Positions 3,076-11,859 of a stretch of 13,659 nucleotides of DNA are shown here, one piece after another. The notes beneath the pieces were generated by a model. The model ran no database searches. It worked only from the letters and a program-made list of their open reading frames with translations, and was not told where the DNA came from. The translations under genes were made by a program, and so were the position numbers. Every line of letters begins with the position of its first letter. Position 1 is the first letter of the stretch. Location: assembly GCA_040754655.1 (NCBI GenBank), contig JBFMCE010000099.1, positions 1 to 13,659 on the forward strand, written 5' to 3'. Source of the DNA: Bdellovibrionota bacterium (GTDB lineage Bacteria > Bdellovibrionota > UBA1018 > UBA923).

Positions 3076-4290
3076 TTATAGGTCAAAGTGAGCGATTTTT
3101 TCGTTCGATCCTTCGGTTAAATGAACCCAGTTCAGTGCTTCACTTAAATAACGTCTCTTGGAACCGTCGATCTTGGAAATAGAATAGCCCCATTTTGAAA
3201 GTTCGCCGTATTTCTTCATGCTAAATTCAACTCTATAAATTGAGTCTTCTTGAGGGGTTCGATTTATTTTATAATCAATATAGTCTGTAGAAGCATCGGA
3301 TAAGCTGGAAGCTGTTTCTATAAAATACTCACCATGTTGAATCCCGTCAGATGGTTTTTCAAGACCGTTTGCCTTCGCAACCGCTAAAATTGTATTTATT
3401 TCGCTCTTAATGGCATTTCGAAAATATCTGAATCTTATGTGAGTAGGTGCTATTTCAATGAACTGCTCATAAAAAAACCTTCCATTATCCCCTGATAAAC
3501 CGGGGTAGTTGAGATCAAACCATAATCTCCATGCTTCCAGTCCCGGTATTCGCCAAGCTCCTTCTCCTTCTTTGCGGCCAGCATCCAATACTACCCAGTG
3601 GTTGTAACGACTATCCCAAACCAAATTATTGCCGAAAACATTGAGGTCAATTTTGAGATTGTTTTCTTTAAGTTTGATGTACAGATCGCGCAGCCGGCTG
3701 ATCACCAACTGAGGATTCTGCTTAGTCTCAACGGTGTTTTTAAAGGAGCCAAAATCAACAAATTCCTTTACTAAGGCGACAAGTCGTTTGTTCCCGCCCT
3801 CATCACGAGAATAAATCGGACGAACCTTCGGAGCACCAATACCGGTTTTTTTAAACTTCTCGTAATTATCAAGTTCTTTTTCTAATGCCGAAAATGTAAA
3901 ACCACCGTGTCTATCGATTGGGAGCTTAATTACAGACTTGCAACTTGAACCCAAGCAATAAACTACCCCAAAATCGCCCTCACCGATCATTTCACCAAGC
4001 TCGATTTTTTTGCCATTTGGGAAAATCAAAAAATCGATTTGTCCTCGGACAACCTTTACGCCGGCTATCGATTTTCCATCGAGAATTTTTTCAAGATCCA
4101 AACCGCTTTTGTGCCTTCCTTGGTCGTTTACTTCACCTTTGACGCCAATCAAGTATTCTTCGCATCCAACGGATCGTGTCGATATCTGGAAGTCCGAGCC
4201 GGAACCGTTTCCGTGAGCGAGCCTGCCGACAAGCAGACAAGATAATAAGAAACCGGCCACAAAGCGGCTACAGGTAGAGGCGAACTGCAT
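3076..4290 (-). CDS. Secreted protein with a minimal protein-kinase-like domain
   Basis: ATG 4290 gives a signal-like MQFASTCSRFVAGFLLSCLLVGRLAHG. Kinase motifs occur in correct order: IGEGDFGVVY (Gly loop), VIK, EKELDNY (alphaC Glu), LVKEFV (hinge), KIDLNVFGNNLVW (catalytic loop), VVLDAG (DFG-like). AT-rich relative to flanks. The ORF-track TTG start at 4326 is less likely. Confidence 0.8.
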   Translation of the reverse strand: MQFASTCSRFVAGFLLSCLLVGRLAHGNGSGSDFQISTRSVGCEEYLIGVKGEVNDQGRHKSGLDLEKILDGKSIAGVKVVRGQIDFLIFPNGKKIELGEMIGEGDFGVVYCLGSSCKSVIKLPIDRHGGFTFSALEKELDNYEKFKKTGIGAPKVRPIYSRDEGGNKRLVALVKEFVDFGSFKNTVETKQNPQLVISRLRDLYIKLKENNLKIDLNVFGNNLVWDSRYNHWVVLDAGRKEGEGAWRIPGLEAWRLWFDLNYPGLSGDNGRFFYEQFIEIAPTHIRFRYFRNAIKSEINTILAVAKANGLEKPSDGIQHGEYFIETASSLSDASTDYIDYKINRTPQEDSIYRVEFSMKKYGELSKWGYSISKIDGSKRRYLSEALNWVHLTEGSNEKIAHFDL

Positions 4291-4313: not shown

Positions 4314-4342
4314 TTGTTATAGTCAATTAATATGATTAAACT
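4314..4342 (+). promoter_or_regulatory. Candidate sigma70 promoter for the gene starting at 4375/4384
   Basis: TTGTTA (4314-4319), 17 nt, TAAACT (4337-4342) in an AT-rich divergent intergenic region. A strong SD GGAGGAGG follows at 4363-4370. Confidence 0.45.
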
Positions 4343-4383
4343 AACGTTTCTTTCCCGTTGTTGGAGGAGGTGAAGTGAAGGTA

Positions 4384-5411
4384 ATGAATCATCGGTGTTT
4401 GTTGCTCTTGGTAGGAGCTTCGGTGTTAGCTGCTTTTCTGAATGTGCAGTTCGCGCGCTCAGATGGTGCGATGCTTAACCATCGAATTGAAGTGCACCAA
4501 CGCAATGTTTCTTCTCCTGGAAATATCAGTTGAATCAGATCTGCGGCGGCGGAAGAATTCGGAATAGATGTGCTGTTGGTGGATACGAATTTTTTGGGCT
4601 GTAGCCCTCAAGACGCAAGTGTTTTGGTTTTGCCAAAGAACCTTTCAGCGGGGGCTGAAGTATTTGGGGTAGAGGGCGAAGAATTCAAGTGGGTGGAGCT
4701 GGAGAAAAAAGGTCTAACTCAGCACAGATGGAGCGCGATCGGCAATAAACCTCTTTATGCAGGGTTGGTTGTTTCAGGAAAAAATGCAGCTCATTCGGCG
4801 AAACTACAAAAAGCACAATCCAGAACTCAGTGAACGGAAAATTGGAAGCTCCTCGCTGCCTTGTCGGTGATGGAGAGGTAATCGCCGAAATTGCGGAAAA
4901 TAAGCTTCAAGAGTCTAATGGAAAGCTCTATGAGCTGATGGCAGTTGGCAAGGATTACAAGTTACCGCAGCATGGATCAGAGCGAAGATTTAACGAGCAG
5001 ATTTATAAGATCGTATATGTAAATTCTGAAGGTCGGTGTCAGGTCGCATTCCGAGACACTTATTCAGGCGATCCAGATCGCCAACCACATTACAGCTTGG
5101 ATGCATTTGTAAAAATCAAGAGCAGGTCAGATCAAGAGTTTTGGTTGCTTCTTAGTGGACGAGTCTGGGAAAATGACTTTATCAAAGTCTTGATCTTAAA
5201 CTCAAGGTATCGATTGCTGCGCTTCTTTTATCTGATAGGGCTTGAGATCATTACGCTCGGCGATAACGATCATAACTTTTTCACCATTGGGCCATGTCTG
5301 GTGGCTACCCTTCTGTCGGACTTGGTGCCAAGCCCGCTTACGCTCCGTGCTCAAAAAATAAAGCGAATATCTCGAGTGTATCAGTCGCATCCATCTCGAC
5401 CTTCAAGGTGA
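4384..5411 (+). pseudogene. Disrupted (or recoded/mis-assembled) secreted hypothetical protein gene
   Basis: Strong SD, then GTG 4375/ATG 4384 and signal-like MNHRCLLLLVGASVLAAFLNVQFARS. In-frame TGA at 4531-4533; the same frame continues (ORF 4570-4833). The -1 frame is open from 4749 to 5411, overlapping an A6 run at 4779-4784. The joined product would be about 342 aa. Confidence 0.6.
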
Positions 5412-6516
5412 GCAGGTGCTCTTTGTGCTCAAGGCCTGTTACCAAGTGGTAAAGTTTGGGGTCTCGAATGGTAGCGACACTACGGCGAAATTCGTTGATC
5501 ATCGCGTCTTCGCCGAGATTGTCATCAGACACGAGTTTCTGATCAAGCCAGATTTGAACTTTCACGGCTTGGGAAACATCTCCAGGATTCTTGGGTTTCG
5601 CTTGCGCGACCATGTAAACATCCGTGGCCTTGAAATTAATCGCCAGTTGAAGCTCATCCTTCGAGTTGGTCCCGTGAATGCTTTCGTGGGCGAGCACCCA
5701 CTTTCCATTGAGATAGGGCAGGTCTGGCGCGTACGAGCCCTGGCTTTCGTCGGTGAACGTCATTTCCTCGCCAATGCCTGTGAAGGGTTGCGCGTTTGCG
5801 AAACGAGTCTTTCTCTTGAACCCAAAGAAGATGTCTTGGGTCGTGGCCGGTATTTGATAGTCTGGAAGGTCGATCTTCCGCGTGGGCCTGATGACCGGCG
5901 GGCACGCGAGACCCGGACTGATTTCTCTCAAGAGAAGTTGAATGTTTTTTTCGAACTCAACATAATCGCCTTCACCTACGACGTCTTTCTGGGGTTTGCC
6001 CGAAGGGTCGAACAAGATTCGTCTTGGCCAATACCTGTTTTCAAAACTCCTCCAGATATCAAAATTATTGTCGAGAACCACGGGGTAGGTGATGTCGTAG
6101 GCCCGTATGGCATCAAGAACGTTTTTCTTGTCTTTGCCGAATTCAAACATCGGACAGTGCACCCCAACCGTGACTAGCCCCGCTGGTTGGTAACGGCGAG
6201 TCCACTCGACCACATAAGAGAGCGCGCGTTTGCATGGCAGAAGGGTATAGTCCCAAAAATCCACGAGCACGACCTTGTTCTTGATGTTCTCTGAAATGTG
6301 GAAAAGATAAGACTTCCCGTCGTCATCAAGATGGGCGATCAACAGCGGATCAGAGTTTATCCAATTCGACCAAGTCGCTTCGCGGGCTTCGGTCAAGGCG
6401 GCCTCGGGGCTTTTGGGCAAATCATCCATCAAGAACGACGCCTGCGGCTTTTGTTGCGCGTTCGGGTCTAAACGGAAGAGATTTTTATCTTCACCCAGAT
6501 CTACTTTTCTTTGCAT
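5338..6516 (-). CDS. DipZ-like redoxin (TlpA/thioredoxin fold plus DipZ C-terminal beta domain), degenerate CxxC
   Basis: KVVLVDFWDYTLLPC, GLVTVGVHCPMFEF, ITYPVVLDNNFDIWRSFENRYWP and GEGDY match the DipZ redoxin pattern. LNGKW, FKATDVYMV, PKLYHLV, HLLTL and LEIFALFF match the DipZ C-terminal domain. No signal peptide or CcdA domain. Confidence 0.85.
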   Translation of the reverse strand: MQRKVDLGEDKNLFRLDPNAQQKPQASFLMDDLPKSPEAALTEAREATWSNWINSDPLLIAHLDDDGKSYLFHISENIKNKVVLVDFWDYTLLPCKRALSYVVEWTRRYQPAGLVTVGVHCPMFEFGKDKKNVLDAIRAYDITYPVVLDNNFDIWRSFENRYWPRRILFDPSGKPQKDVVGEGDYVEFEKNIQLLLREISPGLACPPVIRPTRKIDLPDYQIPATTQDIFFGFKRKTRFANAQPFTGIGEEMTFTDESQGSYAPDLPYLNGKWVLAHESIHGTNSKDELQLAINFKATDVYMVAQAKPKNPGDVSQAVKVQIWLDQKLVSDDNLGEDAMINEFRRSVATIRDPKLYHLVTGLEHKEHLLTLKVEMDATDTLEIFALFFEHGA

Positions 6517-8007
6517 CTAATTGCTTCGTCCTCGCGTCATGCTGGTGAATATCCCGAACGAGCAGATCACGGCCAAGGTGAGAAAAGTGTATCGCATCGC
6601 CGTGATGAAGTTCTGGGCGGGCGAACTTAAGGGGCCATTGAATGAGGCTTGTTCAACGTAAAAGCGCATCAGCAATGTCGTGCTCAAAGCCGCTCCGGTA
6701 ACCAGGCCAAAATTGCGAACGGTCGCTAGAAGTGCTGAGGCGACCCCCAAGTGCGTTCGTGCCACTGCCCCCATGATCGCATTATTGTTTGGTGATTGGA
6801 ATAACCCGATTCCTGCTCCACACGCGACGAGATAGAGAACGAGCACTGAGGTGTTTTTGGTCACCAATCCTTGCCAAGGCAAAGACAGAGCGCCTAAGGT
6901 CAAACAAAGCAAAGTCATTCCGACGGTGCTTAAGACCCTTGATCCGTACTTGTCAGAAAGCCTGCCTGCGATAGGAGCCACGAAAAAGATGGTGAGCGGA
7001 ATCGCGGTCATCATGAGGCCTACTTGATGGGGCGGGTAGTCACGCACGTTTTGAAGGTAAAATGGCATCAGAAGAGTAAGGCTGCTGATCGCAACGAAAT
7101 TAAACAAGCTGCTGATGTTTGCAGCGAGAAAAAGCCGCGATTTAAAGAGCGTGAGGTCAAGAACCGGGTCTTTGATGCTCCATTCCCAGATGAGAAACAA
7201 AGCGAGAAGCCCTAACGCTCCGAACATGATGATCTTCTGCAAAGGGCCCGCAAGGCCAAGCACATTTTCGCGGTCGATGGCGAGGCTGTAACCAAATTGA
7301 ATGAACATCCAAAGGATAGCGCCTAACCAATCAAAATAACGCAGCTTGCTAATTGAAACCTGTAAACGCACCAAAAAAGGAAGCTTGCGCTCACGCTCTA
7401 AGATCGCAGTTTCGCTCGGGGTGGCCGTCATTGCGAGCAGTGAGGGAACATACCTTGTCACCAAGAAAGAACCCAAGAGCCCAAACGGGATGTTGACGAA
7501 AAAGATGCTGGGCCACGAAAAAAACCTGACAAGCAATCCTCCAAGCGTCGGGCCCAAGGCAAGTCCTGCTGAGACGACCATGGCAAGAGTGCCCAAAGCT
7601 TTTCCTCGTTCATTTGTCGGGAAAGCCGCTGTGATGATCGCGGGTCCATTCGCCATCAGCATTGCTGCTCCAAATCCCTGCAGGCCTCGAAAGAGAATCA
7701 ATTGATCGATTGTTGACGCGATCCCGCACAAGAAGCTACCCAAGGTGAAGGTGAGGTAGCCCATGTTAAAGACAATTTTCCGACCTATCACATCCGCTAA
7801 TCTGCCGAAAAACAAGAGTAGGCCTGTAATACTGAAGAGATACGCGATGACGACCCATCGTGAATAAGACAAGCCGGTTCGGAAAGACGCCGTAATGCTG
7901 GGCAGCGCGACGTTGACGATGCTTGAGTCGAGCGTGGCCATGAAGGTTCCGCAAGCTACAGCTCCTAAGATGGCCCACTTTTGTTGTATTCCAGATTCGC
8001 GTTGCAC
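6517..8007 (-). CDS. MFS transporter, DHA2 (EmrB/QacA-like) 14-TMS family
   Basis: FMATLDSSIVNVALP (motif D1), GRLADVIGRK (motif A), LFRGLQGFGAA, GPTLGG (motif C), WPSIFFVNIPFG, FDWLG, GRLSDKYGSR, FQSPNN. Start uncertain: GTG 8007 preferred, TTG 8043 possible; 8100 overlaps the transketolase gene. Confidence 0.92.
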   Translation of the reverse strand: MQRESGIQQKWAILGAVACGTFMATLDSSIVNVALPSITASFRTGLSYSRWVVIAYLFSITGLLLFFGRLADVIGRKIVFNMGYLTFTLGSFLCGIASTIDQLILFRGLQGFGAAMLMANGPAIITAAFPTNERGKALGTLAMVVSAGLALGPTLGGLLVRFFSWPSIFFVNIPFGLLGSFLVTRYVPSLLAMTATPSETAILERERKLPFLVRLQVSISKLRYFDWLGAILWMFIQFGYSLAIDRENVLGLAGPLQKIIMFGALGLLALFLIWEWSIKDPVLDLTLFKSRLFLAANISSLFNFVAISSLTLLMPFYLQNVRDYPPHQVGLMMTAIPLTIFFVAPIAGRLSDKYGSRVLSTVGMTLLCLTLGALSLPWQGLVTKNTSVLVLYLVACGAGIGLFQSPNNNAIMGAVARTHLGVASALLATVRNFGLVTGAALSTTLLMRFYVEQASFNGPLSSPAQNFITAMRYTFLTLAVICSFGIFTSMTRGRSN

Positions 8008-8082
8008 TCTTTCACTTTCAGATTCAGACCCAGTGTTTGTCAACTTCGAAGGGAGTATGTTACAGCACCTTAAGGAAACATT

Positions 8083-8916
8083 ATGCCTCAAATCGACCAA
8101 TTACGTCTGCAAGCACAAAAACTTCGAGCATCTATTCTAGAAATGTTAACCGAGGCCCGCTCTGGCCACCCAGGAGGAAGCCTTTCCTGTGTGGAAATCG
8201 TTACGGCTCTGTATTTCTCAGAATTGCATCATGATCCGAAACGCCCTGACATGCCCGATCGCGATCGTTTCGTGATTTCAAAGGGCCATGGGGTTCCAAC
8301 AGTCTACGCAGCAATGGCCCACACGGGTTATTTTCCTCTCGAAGAATTGATGACGCTAAGGAAGACGGGCGCAAGACTGCAGGGTCATCCTGATCGCGCA
8401 AGACTTCCGGGAATCGAAGCTTCGACGGGTAGCCTCGGACAAGGGCTCTCTGTCGCGCAGGGAATGGCACTGGCTGCGCGCATTTCGCCAAAACCGTGGC
8501 ACACCTATTGTTTACTTGGCGATGGAGAAATTCAAGAAGGACAAGTTTGGGAGACGGCGATGAGCGCCCCGAACTTTGGCCTGGGCGGGCTTACCGCGAT
8601 TCTCGACTACAATCGCGGCCAAATCGACGGACCTGTGAAAGACGTGATGGATATCGAGCCCATCGCAGACAAGTGGCGCGCATTCAACTGGGATGTCGTC
8701 GTGGTGGATGGCCACAAGTTTGAAGAGTTGCTGCCCGCTTTGAAAGAAGCGAGAAAAGCCGACATCCGCAATGGACGGCCTCGAATGATCATTGCGAATA
8801 CGGTCAAAGGCAAGGGAGTTTCATTCATGGAAGACAAGATCGAATGGCACGGCGTTGCCCCCACTCGGGAACAACTGCAGAAAGCCCTGGAAGAAGTGCG
8901 AGGACGATTGGTATGA
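8083..8916 (+). CDS. tkt: Transketolase, N-terminal (thiamine-diphosphate-binding) subunit
   Basis: SGHPGGSLS, DRDRFVISKGH, LQGHP, STGSLGQGLS, GDGEIQEGQVWE...DYN (TPP motif), TVKGKGVSFME, WHG. SD AAGGA at 8072-8076. Confidence 0.95.
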   Translation: MPQIDQLRLQAQKLRASILEMLTEARSGHPGGSLSCVEIVTALYFSELHHDPKRPDMPDRDRFVISKGHGVPTVYAAMAHTGYFPLEELMTLRKTGARLQGHPDRARLPGIEASTGSLGQGLSVAQGMALAARISPKPWHTYCLLGDGEIQEGQVWETAMSAPNFGLGGLTAILDYNRGQIDGPVKDVMDIEPIADKWRAFNWDVVVVDGHKFEELLPALKEARKADIRNGRPRMIIANTVKGKGVSFMEDKIEWHGVAPTREQLQKALEEVRGRLV

Positions 8917-9872
8917 CGACTACACCACAGAAGCCAAAAGCGACACGCCAAGCATTTGGAGAAGCCTTGGCCGAAATGGGCGCTTCTCATCCGAAGATAG
9001 TCGTATGTGACGCTGACCTTTCGAAATCGACGAAATCTGAGATGTTCTCAAAGAAATTTCCAGAGAGGTTTTTCCAGATCGGCATCGCTGAGGCGAATAT
9101 GATTGGAACGGGGGCTGGGCTTGCTTTGAGCGGCTTTGTTCCTTTTATCTGCAGCTTTGGTTGCTTCGTCACTGGTAGGTATGACCAAATCCGGATGTCG
9201 GTTGCTTACGCGAGAGCGAATGTGCGCATCGTAGGAACACATTCCGGCATCGGGATCGGTGATGATGGACACAGCCAGATGGGGCTTGAAGATTTGTCTC
9301 TCATGCGCGGTTTGCCGACGATGGTGGTCTTGCAACCTTGTGATGAGATCGAAACGCGCCAGATGGTGCAATTGCTGTCATCAGAAACGGCGCTGCAGCA
9401 GCCGGCCTACTTGCGTTTGACGCGTCAAGCATTGGCACCGATGCATGACTCTAATTACAAGTGGCAACTTGGAAAATTAGACGTCTTAAGACGCGGTTCA
9501 AAAGTAGCCCTTTTGGGTACAGGCGCGGGCACCCAAGAATGTATGCGAGCAAGTGAGATACTCAAGGCCAAGGGATTGAATGCTTCAGTAGTGAACGCGC
9601 ACACCTTGAAGCCTTTTGATGCTCAAGGCGTGCGCGCGCTCGCTAAAGAACACCAATATTTGTTTACTGTGGAAGACCATTACACCACCGGCGGACTTGG
9701 TTCTGCAGTTGCGGAAGCGCTTGCGGATCAGGGGCTCACTTCTCAAGTGCGGCTTGTGCGTTTGGGCGTTCAAGACGCTTTCGGAGAGTCTGGTGAGCCT
9801 GTTGAGCTTTACGAAAAGTTTGGCCTCGGTGCCGAAAAAGTGGCTGACTCTGTTCTCAAAGAGGTTCGTTAA
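8913..9872 (+). CDS. tkt: Transketolase, C-terminal subunit
   Basis: ATGA overlap with the upstream stop and SD GAGGA at 8900-8904. Motifs ATRQAFG, DADLSKST, GIAEANM, YDQIR, YLRLTR, TLKPFD, TVEDH...GGLGSAVAE, FGESG. Confidence 0.95.
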   Translation: MTTTPQKPKATRQAFGEALAEMGASHPKIVVCDADLSKSTKSEMFSKKFPERFFQIGIAEANMIGTGAGLALSGFVPFICSFGCFVTGRYDQIRMSVAYARANVRIVGTHSGIGIGDDGHSQMGLEDLSLMRGLPTMVVLQPCDEIETRQMVQLLSSETALQQPAYLRLTRQALAPMHDSNYKWQLGKLDVLRRGSKVALLGTGAGTQECMRASEILKAKGLNASVVNAHTLKPFDAQGVRALAKEHQYLFTVEDHYTTGGLGSAVAEALADQGLTSQVRLVRLGVQDAFGESGEPVELYEKFGLGAEKVADSVLKEVR

Positions 9873-9902
9873 AAGGCCGCGCGCACGCCTTGAAGCGCTT
9901 CA

Positions 9903-9956
9903 TGACTCTACCTTCCTTGCATCTCTTAAAGAGAGGAATAGGGTCAACTTGGAGGG
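9903..9956 (+). promoter_or_regulatory. Long imperfect hairpin containing an anti-SD segment just upstream of an RBS
   Basis: TGACTCTA (9903-9910) pairs with TAGGGTCA (9939-9946), TTCC with GGAA, TCTCT with AGAGA. SD GGAGGG is at 9951-9956. Confidence 0.35.
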
Positions 9957-9964
9957 CTCGCGAA

Positions 9965-10450
9965 ATGAAAATAAAAAGAAAAATTGCTCTCGGCTTGATT
10001 CTCACCGGTTCCGCATTCGCCCAAGGCCTTACACCTGGCGCCAACGGATCGAATGATGCCGGAGCGGATTTGCAGTCGAACGTAGGTTCGGCAGTCACGA
10101 ATCCCAGCACATCTCAGGGGCCGACTTCCCGGGGATCGGAACCCCTGGTTGAACGCCCATCGACGTCGACCATGACAGATGAAGAACGCGTCAGGAGAGG
10201 AGTCGCCGGAGAGCAGCCAAGGCTTCCGAACTCAGATCTCAATAATATTCCTTTAGAAGATCGGGATCGGTTCGAGTTCGAGCAACGCGCCGGCAGGCTT
10301 CCGGGCTCGACGACGAGAGATCCTGGTTCGACGTCGGATCAAGACACTCGTGGCGCGCCCCGTGTTCGCGGCACGCCGAATACTTTTGAGACCGATCTCA
10401 ATGCGGATGGCGATCAATTTGACAGGGGCGTCGACCAAGACCTTGAGTAA
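9965..10450 (+). CDS. Secreted, low-complexity/disordered hypothetical protein
   Basis: SD GGAGGG at 9951-9956, ATG 9965, signal peptide MKIKRKIALGLILTGSAFA|Q. The mature part is rich in D/E/R/G/P/S/T with no Cys. Confidence 0.8.
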   Translation: MKIKRKIALGLILTGSAFAQGLTPGANGSNDAGADLQSNVGSAVTNPSTSQGPTSRGSEPLVERPSTSTMTDEERVRRGVAGEQPRLPNSDLNNIPLEDRDRFEFEQRAGRLPGSTTRDPGSTSDQDTRGAPRVRGTPNTFETDLNADGDQFDRGVDQDLE

Positions 10451-11859
10451 AGCACGAGCGCGCTTTGGCCTGCGGTTTGGATGAGCGTTGAGTGTTGACA
10501 CCAACGTTCGTTGCAAGCCTTCCATTTCTCAAGACCGGTGATGACCCAAGCTTGAGCGGGCAGTTGTTTGCTCCAATTCCCGATTTCAACGGGGTTTACC
10601 TTGAGCACCGAACGTTCAAAGTACCACTCACCGCTTGTTCCAATTTGATTGTGATCGCCCGGGTGGTCGACAAACCAAACCGGTCCTAAGATCTCGGAGC
10701 GTCTTATCGTTTCTTTGAATGCCATGACCTCGGGCACTCGCTCGCGGTAGAGTTTCAATGGGAAGGTCGACCCGATGAATATCCAGACCACCGAGAGATA
10801 AAGCAGGGTTTTGGGTACCAACGGATGCTCAAGCCAATTCCAAATGCGCTTGTGAAGCGCCGCGGCTATTGCGAGCGCGAACGCCGGATAGGCTGGGGCG
10901 ATGTAGTACCAGAACTTCCACTTCACCAATGAAAAACCGCCCAAGAATCCTAGCCCAAAAACGGCAAATACCAAGGCCAGGCGGTTTTTCAAGCTCTGAA
11001 CGAGTGCCCAAACCAGCAAAGGCAACCACGGCCAATAATACTTCAGCAGGATATCGAAGAAGAAGAAAGGTTCTAGTGTCTGAGCACCAGCTCTGCCGGT
11101 GAGCGCGCTGCCAAGCACCTGGTCGAAAAGATATTGCTGCCAGAAGCGCCACTGATCGCTCTTCTCCACCCAAAAGGCCCAAGCCCCAACGCAAATCAAG
11201 AGGCTTGAAACATAGACGCATAAAGACTGGATGCGAGCCCTAAGAGTCAGTGAGTTTTCAGCGTTGGGCAAGGCAAGGAGAAAAGCAAAAAACAGCAGCG
11301 GCCACAAAACTACCGGGCCTTTAGAGAAAAGCGCAAGAAAAGTGCAGAGCCCCGCTAAGGTTGAAAAGAGCAAAGACCGGCGTTTGCGTTGGAGAATGAT
11401 GAAGAGAAAAGCGGAATAGATGAAAAACTCAAGCACAGGCTCGATGTAACCGCGTACAGAACTCAAAACAAAGTCGCGCGTAGAACACAGAATGAAGGCA
11501 GCCAATAAAGCTGTTCCTCGGCCAAGACCTGATTTCAGCCCGATGAGCGCGGTCACCAAAACGGTCAGAAGAGCGAAGAGCCTAGGAACAAGATTAAAAG
11601 CAAAATCATTGACTCCAAAAATCTTATAGCTCAGCGCAGTGACCCAGACGTACAGCGGTGGATGATCAAGAAGCGGGGCACCTTCGTAGATCGCGGGGAA
11701 GAGCTGACCTGTTTGAAGAAGATTTCGCGCCATGACTGCGCGTACTGCTCCATCGATCGTAGGCACAGGAGTGTGATGCAGCCCAACAAAGAAAAGGGCC
11801 CACGCGAGAAATACGATGCTGATGATATGCCAATTGACACCTCTTGAGGGGTGAGACAT
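10414..11859 (-). CDS. ArnT/PMT-like (GT-C fold) membrane glycosyltransferase
   Basis: TM1 followed by IDGAVRAVMARNLLQTG...YEGAPLLDHPPLYVWVTALSYKIFGVNDFA. Also SKGP, YWPWLPLL, KFWYYIAPAYPAFAL and many TM segments. ATG 11859 preferred (11871 possible); 11919 overlaps the divergent gene. Confidence 0.85.
   Translation of the reverse strand: MSHPSRGVNWHIISIVFLAWALFFVGLHHTPVPTIDGAVRAVMARNLLQTGQLFPAIYEGAPLLDHPPLYVWVTALSYKIFGVNDFAFNLVPRLFALLTVLVTALIGLKSGLGRGTALLAAFILCSTRDFVLSSVRGYIEPVLEFFIYSAFLFIILQRKRRSLLFSTLAGLCTFLALFSKGPVVLWPLLFFAFLLALPNAENSLTLRARIQSLCVYVSSLLICVGAWAFWVEKSDQWRFWQQYLFDQVLGSALTGRAGAQTLEPFFFFDILLKYYWPWLPLLVWALVQSLKNRLALVFAVFGLGFLGGFSLVKWKFWYYIAPAYPAFALAIAAALHKRIWNWLEHPLVPKTLLYLSVVWIFIGSTFPLKLYRERVPEVMAFKETIRRSEILGPVWFVDHPGDHNQIGTSGEWYFERSVLKVNPVEIGNWSKQLPAQAWVITGLEKWKACNERWCQHSTLIQTAGQSALVLYSRSWSTPLSN

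Follow-up and report, generated by a model that had tools for sequence, protein, structure and literature searches.

A rare family of signal-bearing minimal kinases in a Bdellovibrionota genome, with a possible role in another cell

Where might an exported bacterial kinase act, when the periplasm is generally regarded as ATP-free? The question is posed by a single gene in a 13,659-nucleotide contig of a Bdellovibrionota bacterium (GenBank assembly GCA_040754655.1, contig JBFMCE010000099.1), a stretch that was analysed at its full length and that we refer to as the window. The product of this gene, here called the window protein, carries ordered kinase motifs behind a signal-like N-terminus, and an earlier note made from the DNA letters had read it as a candidate effector that is delivered into another cell. 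We are highly confident that the protein has a kinase fold and belongs to a new family, and we lean towards the whole chain, namely an exported minimal kinase from a new family that would act on another cell. The features on which this reading draws are collected in Table 1.

The elements of a kinase active site are present in the expected order. The Gly-rich loop, the beta3 lysine, the alphaC glutamate, the catalytic aspartate and asparagine and the aspartate of the DxG motif follow one another as in the protein kinase-like (PKL) fold, and all of them other than G103 are invariant in 17 of 17 aligned domains. This alignment is composed of the window protein, eight small proteins, four locus-translated domain stretches and four stretches of large proteins. 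Its mean column identity is 22%, and 12 of its positions never vary (G99, G105, C112, C117, K122, P124, E139, G150, D215, N222, W225 and D236). Because five of these 12 are the catalytic residues of kinase-fold phosphotransferases, the alignment argues for an active enzyme, and the window protein reads as a catalytically complete minimal kinase. Its successive motifs lie 19, 17, 76, 7 and 14 residues apart, close to the spacing of PKA (22, 19, 75, 5 and 13), while the step from the catalytic aspartate to the asparagine is D+7 here and D+5 or D+6 in the relatives.

The earlier note had listed the same motifs in the same order, across ~4005-3577, and had described no recognisable activation segment or APE motif after DAG and an unrelated tail of ~150 amino acids (aa) beyond it. 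This second description holds in part. No APE motif follows DAG in the window protein sequence, but some 50-60 residues past DAG are weakly conserved in the relatives (consensus W...F....P.....F) and helical in the structural model, so that residues 250-310 are probably the end of the C-lobe and only residues ~311-404 are unique. No relative aligns with this tail, either in an exhaustive phmmer search or in the 17-domain alignment, and a search of the ESM Atlas with residues 262-404 gave no usable feature match, the structure rows that it returned having low template-modelling (TM) scores and being mutually unrelated.

Existing profile libraries do not account for the window protein. Pfam-A, NCBIfam, PHROGs and PADLOC hold no credible family for it at an expectation value (E) of 0.01 or below, and no PADLOC defence-system family matches it. 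Opening Pfam to E<=10 gave no match to Pkinase (PF00069). Three kinds of candidate were rejected as chance: ARMC9_LisH in the opened Pfam search (a 19-residue match at E 0.017-0.039), a trio of PHROGs whose function is not annotated (E 0.03-0.2), and CeuE-type binding proteins in a single-protein phmmer search of PDB (whole-sequence E 0.29-0.31, the match lying over residues 266-333). As far as the libraries go, the suggestion of an undescribed kinase family has therefore been borne out, since none of the four describes this protein. The members of the family share the signature G-x-G-x-[FY]-G-x-V-Y-C-x(3-7)-C-x-x-[VI]-I-K-[IL]-P, which is in none of these libraries.

The family is very rare and patchy. 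A word-indexed search of 5.8 billion clusters with the window protein returned only itself, and the same search with an alignment of the family (A1) returned only P0013, the query (P0002) and P0019. Exhaustive phmmer against 1,835,955,588 representatives found 17 proteins at E<=1e-3, made up of the query, 14 relatives and two that were discarded. The relatives match query residues ~57-263 in order, at 28-34% identity and with E values from 2.7e-14 to 2.1e-4. The matches of the discarded pair (P0014 and P0018) are of low complexity and lie in 6 and 4 short stretches outside the core, respectively, and the pair is missed by the A1 profile, which recovers all of the other relatives together with P0019. 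Weak Pkinase matches lie over the N-lobes of two relatives (P0003, 5e-9; P0011, 0.003), and a third (P0016) has a sub-threshold ABC1 match at E 0.001. No match was found by tblastn among 50,697 phage and 72,556 plasmid records, and a protein scan of 185,579 GTDB species genomes with the window protein gave no relative, none of its 146 pattern matches being confirmed.

A literature search, outside which the KINtaro database and the supplements of a bioRxiv survey of PKL families lay, found no description of the family, nor any paper in which 'NleH' and 'predatory bacteria' occur together. It is not mentioned in passages of two surveys of kinase-like families (PMC9758233; bioRxiv 10.64898/2026.09.18.752743). 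Neither the fold nor the minimal architecture is new. Five things in combination appear not to have been described before: a sequence family of its own, a Sec-type signal, a hairpin cysteine pair that never varies, modular use in giant proteins, and an occurrence that is both Bdellovibrionota-like and archaeal-labelled.

The fold itself can be assigned from several directions. A profile of the 17 sequences, compared with all PDB sequences, places NleH2 first (E 1e-7, 34.9 bits) and NleH1 second (1.5e-7), followed by PknB-like (6.5e-6) and CK1 (1.1e-5) kinases and then ULK3 and Aurora, in a second tier that extends to 1e-3; an earlier profile of nine sequences gave the identical order with weaker scores. 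Alignment of the profile with NleH2 has hardly any gaps across chain residues 10-137 of 167, and the K, E, D, N and D of the active site are paired in it. Supplied with the 17-row alignment, AlphaFold2 models residues ~50-240 with predicted local distance difference test (pLDDT) means, taken over blocks of ten residues, that are mostly 75-94 with dips to 57-69, and the core at about 85-94. The predicted structure is a bilobal PKL fold, with a beta-sheet N-lobe that includes alphaC and a helical C-lobe that includes the catalytic loop. Foldseek comparison of this model with PDB puts NleH2 (4o96_A, 4lrk_A) and NleH1 (4lrj_B) at ranks 1-3, with E values of 9.5e-7 to 1.9e-6 and TM scores by target of 0.62-0.66 at 15-16% identity. 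PknB and BRAF come next, RIO2 stands at ranks 28 and 37, and the matches listed (the best 49 of at least 500 at E<=0.001) are all kinases. The best 50 fold matches listed from BFVD are mostly annotated viral protein kinases, and also include two replicase polyproteins, a portal protein and several unnamed proteins.

A weaker and independent source, the ESM Atlas, has the OspG_kinase cluster among its feature neighbours (score 0.95, 169 of 256 features shared), and Kdo, RIO, APH and Pkinase clusters among its structure neighbours (TM 0.34-0.45, with Kdo at 0.45). Unnamed 'Uroviricota' clusters are also found among the Atlas neighbours. The earlier note had asked whether AlphaFold and Foldseek would predict a kinase fold at all, and whether the protein would fall among Kdo, RIO or other small-molecule kinases. 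A kinase fold is predicted, NleH2 and NleH1 lead the matches, and the best of these are NleH and Hanks-type kinases, with Kdo, RIO and APH lower. The truncated architecture of effector kinases that the note had proposed is, by both profile and fold, recognisable here as the NleH/OspG type.

NleH1 and NleH2, type III effectors of enteropathogenic and enterohaemorrhagic E. coli (4lrj, 4lrk, 4o96), are the best PDB match by profile and by fold, and their five catalytic residues align with those of the window protein. Passages of PMC12756638 describe NleH as a minimal architecture without subdomains VIII-XI, and OspG, a Shigella type III effector activated by host ubiquitin/E2, as a truncated kinase. 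The window family is like both in lacking subdomains VIII-XI: it has no APE motif, its domain ends ~50-60 residues past DxG, and its alignment with NleH2 is matched in length. These likenesses suggest that the window protein works like an NleH-type minimal kinase. There are also differences. NleH lacks a Sec signal and reaches its host through type III injection, it has E and T in the alignment columns of C112 and C117, its N-terminal region is different, and it has no 95-residue C-terminal tail. The likeness to OspG (PF22303) consists of the truncated kinase type and the Atlas OspG_kinase cluster; no OspG chain is found among the best 60 PDB profile matches listed or the best 49 Foldseek matches listed, and nothing in the window protein points to activation by ubiquitin/E2.

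The Hanks-type Ser/Thr kinases (PknB, CK1, Aurora; PF00069) are second-tier matches by profile and fold; unlike them, the window protein is without an activation segment, an APE motif and a lower C-lobe, and has no match to the Pkinase profile. RIO, Kdo (InaA) and APH proteins share compact kinase-like folds with it, but in each search they scored below NleH and the Hanks-type kinases; these families are cytoplasmic housekeeping or resistance enzymes. The eukaryotic secreted kinases Fam20C and VLK combine a kinase fold with a signal peptide and extracytoplasmic action, in a secretory pathway that is supplied with ATP. HopBF1 is another minimal effector kinase, and CotH and CtkA count among the bacterial minimal or secreted kinases. 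Neither Fam20C and VLK nor HopBF1, CotH and CtkA appear among the PDB profile or Foldseek matches listed. To our knowledge, nearly all minimal effector kinases described so far come from animal and plant pathogens, whose dedicated machines inject them.

The second element of the reading is export. The window protein begins with MQFASTCSRFVAGFLLSCLLVGRLAHG, followed by NGSGS, in which one Arg precedes a hydrophobic core of 13 residues and A-H-G forms the putative cleavage site; the sole alternative start of the open reading frame (ORF) is a TTG at 4326, 12 codons further upstream. By Kyte-Doolittle hydropathy a single 19-residue stretch, beginning at residue 3, scores 1.6 or more and no further transmembrane segment is found, in agreement with the Sec-like N-terminus and absence of other membrane segments that had been noticed from the sequence before. 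LLSC at residues 15-18 makes a poor lipobox, and the exported form may be soluble, anchored or lipid-modified. A strongly hydrophobic stretch lies within the first 45 residues of nine of the 16 family proteins (the window protein, P0003, P0005, P0006, P0010, P0011, P0012, P0016 and P0017), and several relatives have textbook signal peptides, such as MKKHKLLLCLLLLFSLQIFA/NSS, with Lys-rich n-regions in P0011 and P0016.

The cysteine pair bears on the same point. In the AlphaFold2 model C112 and C117 lie on either side of the turn that joins predicted strands 108-113 and 119-123. Seven of the 17 aligned sequences as given have no other cysteine (including those of P0008 and P0009, which are whole but truncated stored proteins), and the cysteine count of the sequences as given is two or four in 11 of 17. 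We infer a C112-C117 disulfide across the beta2-beta3 hairpin. Because signal-like N-termini recur in the family and the cysteine pair is invariant, an extracytoplasmic location is the best reading, and we regard export of the window protein through Sec as probable. A further observation concerns a single extra cysteine, which lies 10-25 residues past the signal-like segment in all six small family proteins with an N-terminal region (the window protein, as C43 at 4162-4164, and P0004, P0005, P0006, P0011 and P0012). Its local context is similar in three of them (VGCEEYL, SACETFF, ETCLDFF). The extra residue gives most mature forms an odd number of cysteines, for which an intermolecular disulfide or a covalent attachment are possible causes.

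The company in which the domain is found is also part of the evidence. Some relatives are small (219-303 aa), and others are large proteins of 1153-3515 aa that carry the kinase domain near the C-terminus or internally, and in P0003 twice. A degenerate DNA pattern for G-x-G-x-[FY]-x-x-[VI]-[YFH]-C-x4-C-x-x-[VIA]-x-K-x-P, which occurs once in the window and in 0 of 200 shuffles, gave five loci (L001 to L005) in the GTDB genomes, and all five encode true family members. L002 and L005, from one Bacteriovoracaceae metagenome-assembled genome (MAG), encode two small signal-bearing proteins. The other three encode giants: a 2133-aa protein with a kinase domain in a MAG labelled 'archaeon' (L001, 1416-7817, minus strand), a 2132-aa protein with a kinase domain from a 2135-codon gene in a MAG labelled Methanosarcinales (L004, 2600-9007, minus strand), and a 3464-codon open frame (3379 aa when counted from the first start codon) in a second MAG with the Methanosarcinales label (L003, 4494-14888, plus strand). 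The last of these holds two copies of the kinase domain together with a calcineurin-like phosphoesterase (Metallophos) domain. The taxonomic spread of homologues, to which the earlier note had pointed as informative, thus takes in a Bacteriovoracaceae MAG with two relatives and three archaeal-labelled MAGs.

Taken over all searches, the domain is carried by proteins of 1153, 1182, 1226, 2132, 2133 and 3515 aa and by the 3464-codon frame, two of these hosts having two copies, and the giant proteins bear signal-like N-termini. From its sequence context, the domain seems to recur both alone and as a module of large secreted multidomain proteins, in the manner of polymorphic-toxin and effector modules. 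A reading as an effector or toxin module fits because the domain sits on giant, multidomain, signal-bearing proteins.

Some further features of the large relatives were noted. In P0007, P0010 and P0015 (1153-1226 aa) the kinase domain lies at the extreme C-terminus and a second conserved cysteine pair is found near the end. This subfamily, to which P0013 and P0019 also belong, has a central Gly/Ala-rich hydrophobic stretch (~500-540 in P0007) that resembles a membrane-inserting hairpin. An HD-like motif was seen, by eye only, near the end of the giant protein of L003. L001 and L004 have in common an upstream neighbour of 342-348 aa with a weak match to the Ig domain Big_9, and L001 also carries a HepT/nucleotidyltransferase toxin-antitoxin pair and an RNA ligase.

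We can propose a mechanism on this basis. The Sec machinery would move the kinase out of the cytoplasm of its Bdellovibrionota producer, and a disulfide between C112 and C117 would staple the beta2-beta3 hairpin in an oxidising compartment. Because the periplasm of the producer offers no ATP, the enzyme would have to act elsewhere, and only in places supplied with ATP. Such a place would be another cell, inside it or on its surface (for a predator, its prey), and there the enzyme would phosphorylate a protein target. The unique C-terminal tail (residues 311-404) may give targeting or substrate choice. Action in another cell is the step of this chain that we advance only tentatively.

Several observations weigh against such a mechanism. 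The predatory habit of the producer is an assumption, three of the five loci are in archaeal-labelled MAGs (labels as given), which is a poor fit to a simple story of a bacterial predator, and the kinase may act on a protein or on a small molecule. Neither the 13.7-kb window nor L002 and L005 contain secretion or injection machinery, type III genes among them, or an immunity gene or conserved neighbour, and no small neighbour that could be a cognate immunity candidate is common to the three. As regards export, R23 directly follows the hydrophobic core of the window protein and leaves a weak charge bias across the segment, and seven of the 16 family proteins have no hydrophobic N-terminus; the stored records of P0006, P0008 and P0009 start without M and look partial, and P0004, P0007, P0013, P0015 and P0019, which also lack the segment, may have a miscalled start. 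As regards the fold, AlphaFold2 gave a poor model from the single sequence (pLDDT 36), and the good one rests on 17 sequences only. The fold match to NleH is remote, with 15-16% identity, a root-mean-square deviation of ~4.8 A and a TM score by query of 0.31, the query being long. PF22303 (OspG_kinase) does not match the whole protein or the core alone, either at E<=0.01 or at E<=10, so that the window protein is not a member of that Pfam family.

Of the other explanations, the one to be taken most seriously retains the fold and the export and changes the substrate. It holds that a kinase-fold enzyme acts outside cells, or in the envelope of its producer, on a non-protein substrate such as a lipid, a sugar, a cell-wall fragment or an antibiotic, with ATP drawn from lysed cells, or that it performs another chemistry such as AMPylation. 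The presence of Kdo, APH and RIO among the Atlas structure neighbours and of RIO2 at Foldseek rank 28 would agree with this, as would the lack of a peptide-binding lobe in minimal kinases and the absence of a delivery system nearby in the window, L002 and L005; PKL folds capable of AMPylation or glutamylation are, moreover, reported in the KINtaro abstract (PMC10870513). On the other hand, the window protein has no match at E<=10 to PF01163, PF06293, PF01636 or PF03109 (RIO1, Kdo, APH and ABC1), its best sequence and fold matches are protein kinases, and its catalytic loop retains the D...N arrangement of phosphotransferases. On balance we judge this explanation improbable, and the two that follow are less likely still.

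One of these turns on the N-terminus, which might be an uncleaved membrane anchor that leaves the domain of an ordinary signalling kinase in the cytoplasm. The small difference in charge across the hydrophobic segment (R9 before, R23 after) would agree with it, but in relatives such as P0011 and P0016 the signal peptide is of the textbook cleavable kind and its n-region is rich in Lys, and an invariant cysteine pair with few other cysteines is as expected of an oxidising compartment. The cytoplasmic, anchored domain that the earlier note had named as a possible objection is disfavoured on these two grounds; the absence of a sensor domain, partner gene or conserved context in the window, L002 and L005, together with the rarity and patchiness of the family, adds to them, and we regard an anchored signalling kinase as very unlikely. 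Scarcely more can be said for a decaying or non-functional gene of kinase ancestry that was acquired horizontally, the least probable of the three. The gene is a compositional outlier (GC 0.419, and 0.402 at third codon positions, vs 0.48-0.55 and 0.51-0.60 in 11 other window genes), and because of this low GC it was probably acquired horizontally; it also adjoins a broken-looking gene (4375-5411, plus strand), has no Shine-Dalgarno motif within 30 bases before its ATG, and has no promoter-like site reported upstream. Against decay, the ORF is intact over 404 codons and all 12 of the family-invariant positions are kept, a retention that would be surprising in a gene under decay. An exported minimal kinase that acts on another cell remains the reading that we prefer.

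The surroundings of the gene are of ordinary kinds and show no conservation. Its neighbours in the window include a QueG-like Fe-S protein, a lipoprotein-like ORF, an NAD-dependent epimerase, a thioredoxin-like protein, a major facilitator superfamily transporter, a split transketolase, a PMT_2 glycosyltransferase and a zinc alcohol dehydrogenase, and Rfam and tRNA scans of the window found nothing. L005 has an aspartokinase-homoserine dehydrogenase and MntP as neighbours, and L002 a hybrid histidine kinase, a PilZ protein, a DUF4185 protein and a Fic protein. In L002 the DUF4185 and Fic/DOC-family proteins (8476-10817, minus strand) are convergent to the kinase homologue (7749-8489), an arrangement that is absent from the window and L005.

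The broken-looking gene next to the kinase gene opens with a 52-codon ORF that has a signal-like N-terminus (MKVMNHRCLLLLVGASVLAAF) and ends at an in-frame TGA (4531-4533), the frame then staying open to 4833. A frame-shifted ORF (4830-5411) follows and runs into the thioredoxin-like gene at the 3' end of the latter. The two pieces scanned, 4570-4833 and 4830-5411, matched no family, and a recoded genetic code for this TGA was rejected, since TGA ends three of the 12 window genes checked. Further away, the two transketolase ORFs overlap by 73 bases and the second one probably has its real start at a more downstream position, its relatives covering 77-94% of the query. This C-terminal subunit has 120 listed relatives with up to 76% identity, and 58-66% to named proteins. 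Nine of the 120 are named, five from Bdellovibrionota lineages (Bacteriovoracia, Bdellovibrionia, Bdellovibrio sp., and Bdellovibrionota twice), one from 'Deltaproteobacteria' and three from 'bacterium'. These names by themselves make a Bdellovibrionota-like source likely.

Table 1. Position of the kinase gene, its parts and other features in the window.
Feature	Position	Strand	Remarks
Kinase coding sequence	3076..4290	-	404 aa, ATG start, TAA stop, uninterrupted
Sec-type signal-like N-terminus, residues 1-27	4210..4290	-	n-region with R9, h-region FVAGFLLSCLLVG, A-H-G before N28; predicted by inspection and hydropathy
N-terminal extension, residues 28-83	4042..4209	-	single Cys (C43); predicted strands 50-54 and 60-65 (10-residue pLDDT block means 70 and 86)
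Conserved minimal kinase core, residues 84-262	3505..4041	-	all relatives, and also NleH1/2, match over this region
Gly-rich loop GEGDFG, residues 103-108	3967..3984	-	G105 invariant; G103 in at least 90% of sequences
C112-x4-C117	3940..3957	-	flanks predicted beta2-beta3 turn; invariant in 17 of 17 domains
VIK, residues 120-122	3925..3933	-	includes K122
K122, ATP-anchoring lysine	3925..3927	-	aligns with VLK lysine of NleH2
E139, alphaC glutamate	3874..3876	-	invariant
IDLNVFGNN, residues 214-222	3625..3651	-	motif includes catalytic loop
Catalytic loop, D215 to N222 (DLNVFGNN)	3625..3648	-	D215 and N222 both invariant
DAG, residues 236-238, DFG equivalent	3577..3585	-	D236 invariant
Weakly conserved helical stretch after DAG, residues 250-310	3361..3543	-	W...F...P...F in relatives; pLDDT block means 49-62
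Tail unique to window protein, residues 311-404	3079..3360	-	pLDDT <50 from residue 312
Broken-looking secreted-protein gene	4375-5411	+	divergent from kinase gene; GTG preceded by GGAGGAGG
Lipoprotein-type ORF, 419 codons	669-1928	+	likely real start gives MKRQIPVLLFLVAFSAC; Gly-rich runs; no Pfam, NCBIfam or PADLOC match
Thioredoxin-like protein	5338-6516	-	Thioredoxin_10 C-terminal domain and Thioredoxin_8; ~1 kb upstream of kinase gene, same strand
Split transketolase	8083-9872	+	N-terminal subunit 8083-8916; C-terminal subunit ORF from 8844

In its widest form, the picture that these observations may suggest is of a family of Sec-exported, disulfide-stapled kinases that predatory Bdellovibrionota release into their prey, and that other microbes, including those binned as archaea, mount on giant secreted proteins; the window protein would be the first of them to be seen. 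Phosphorylation inside another cell would then be the work of an inter-microbial 'kinase toxin' that needs no type III, IV or VI injection, and the family would possibly be the environmental stock out of which the NleH/OspG-type effectors of pathogens came. This larger picture is speculative, and we think it rather unlikely to be correct in full. If the family is active, it would nonetheless widen the known uses of protein phosphorylation in microbial conflict, present a biochemical puzzle in the form of the ATP source of an exported bacterial kinase, and provide an outgroup for the origin of NleH and OspG.

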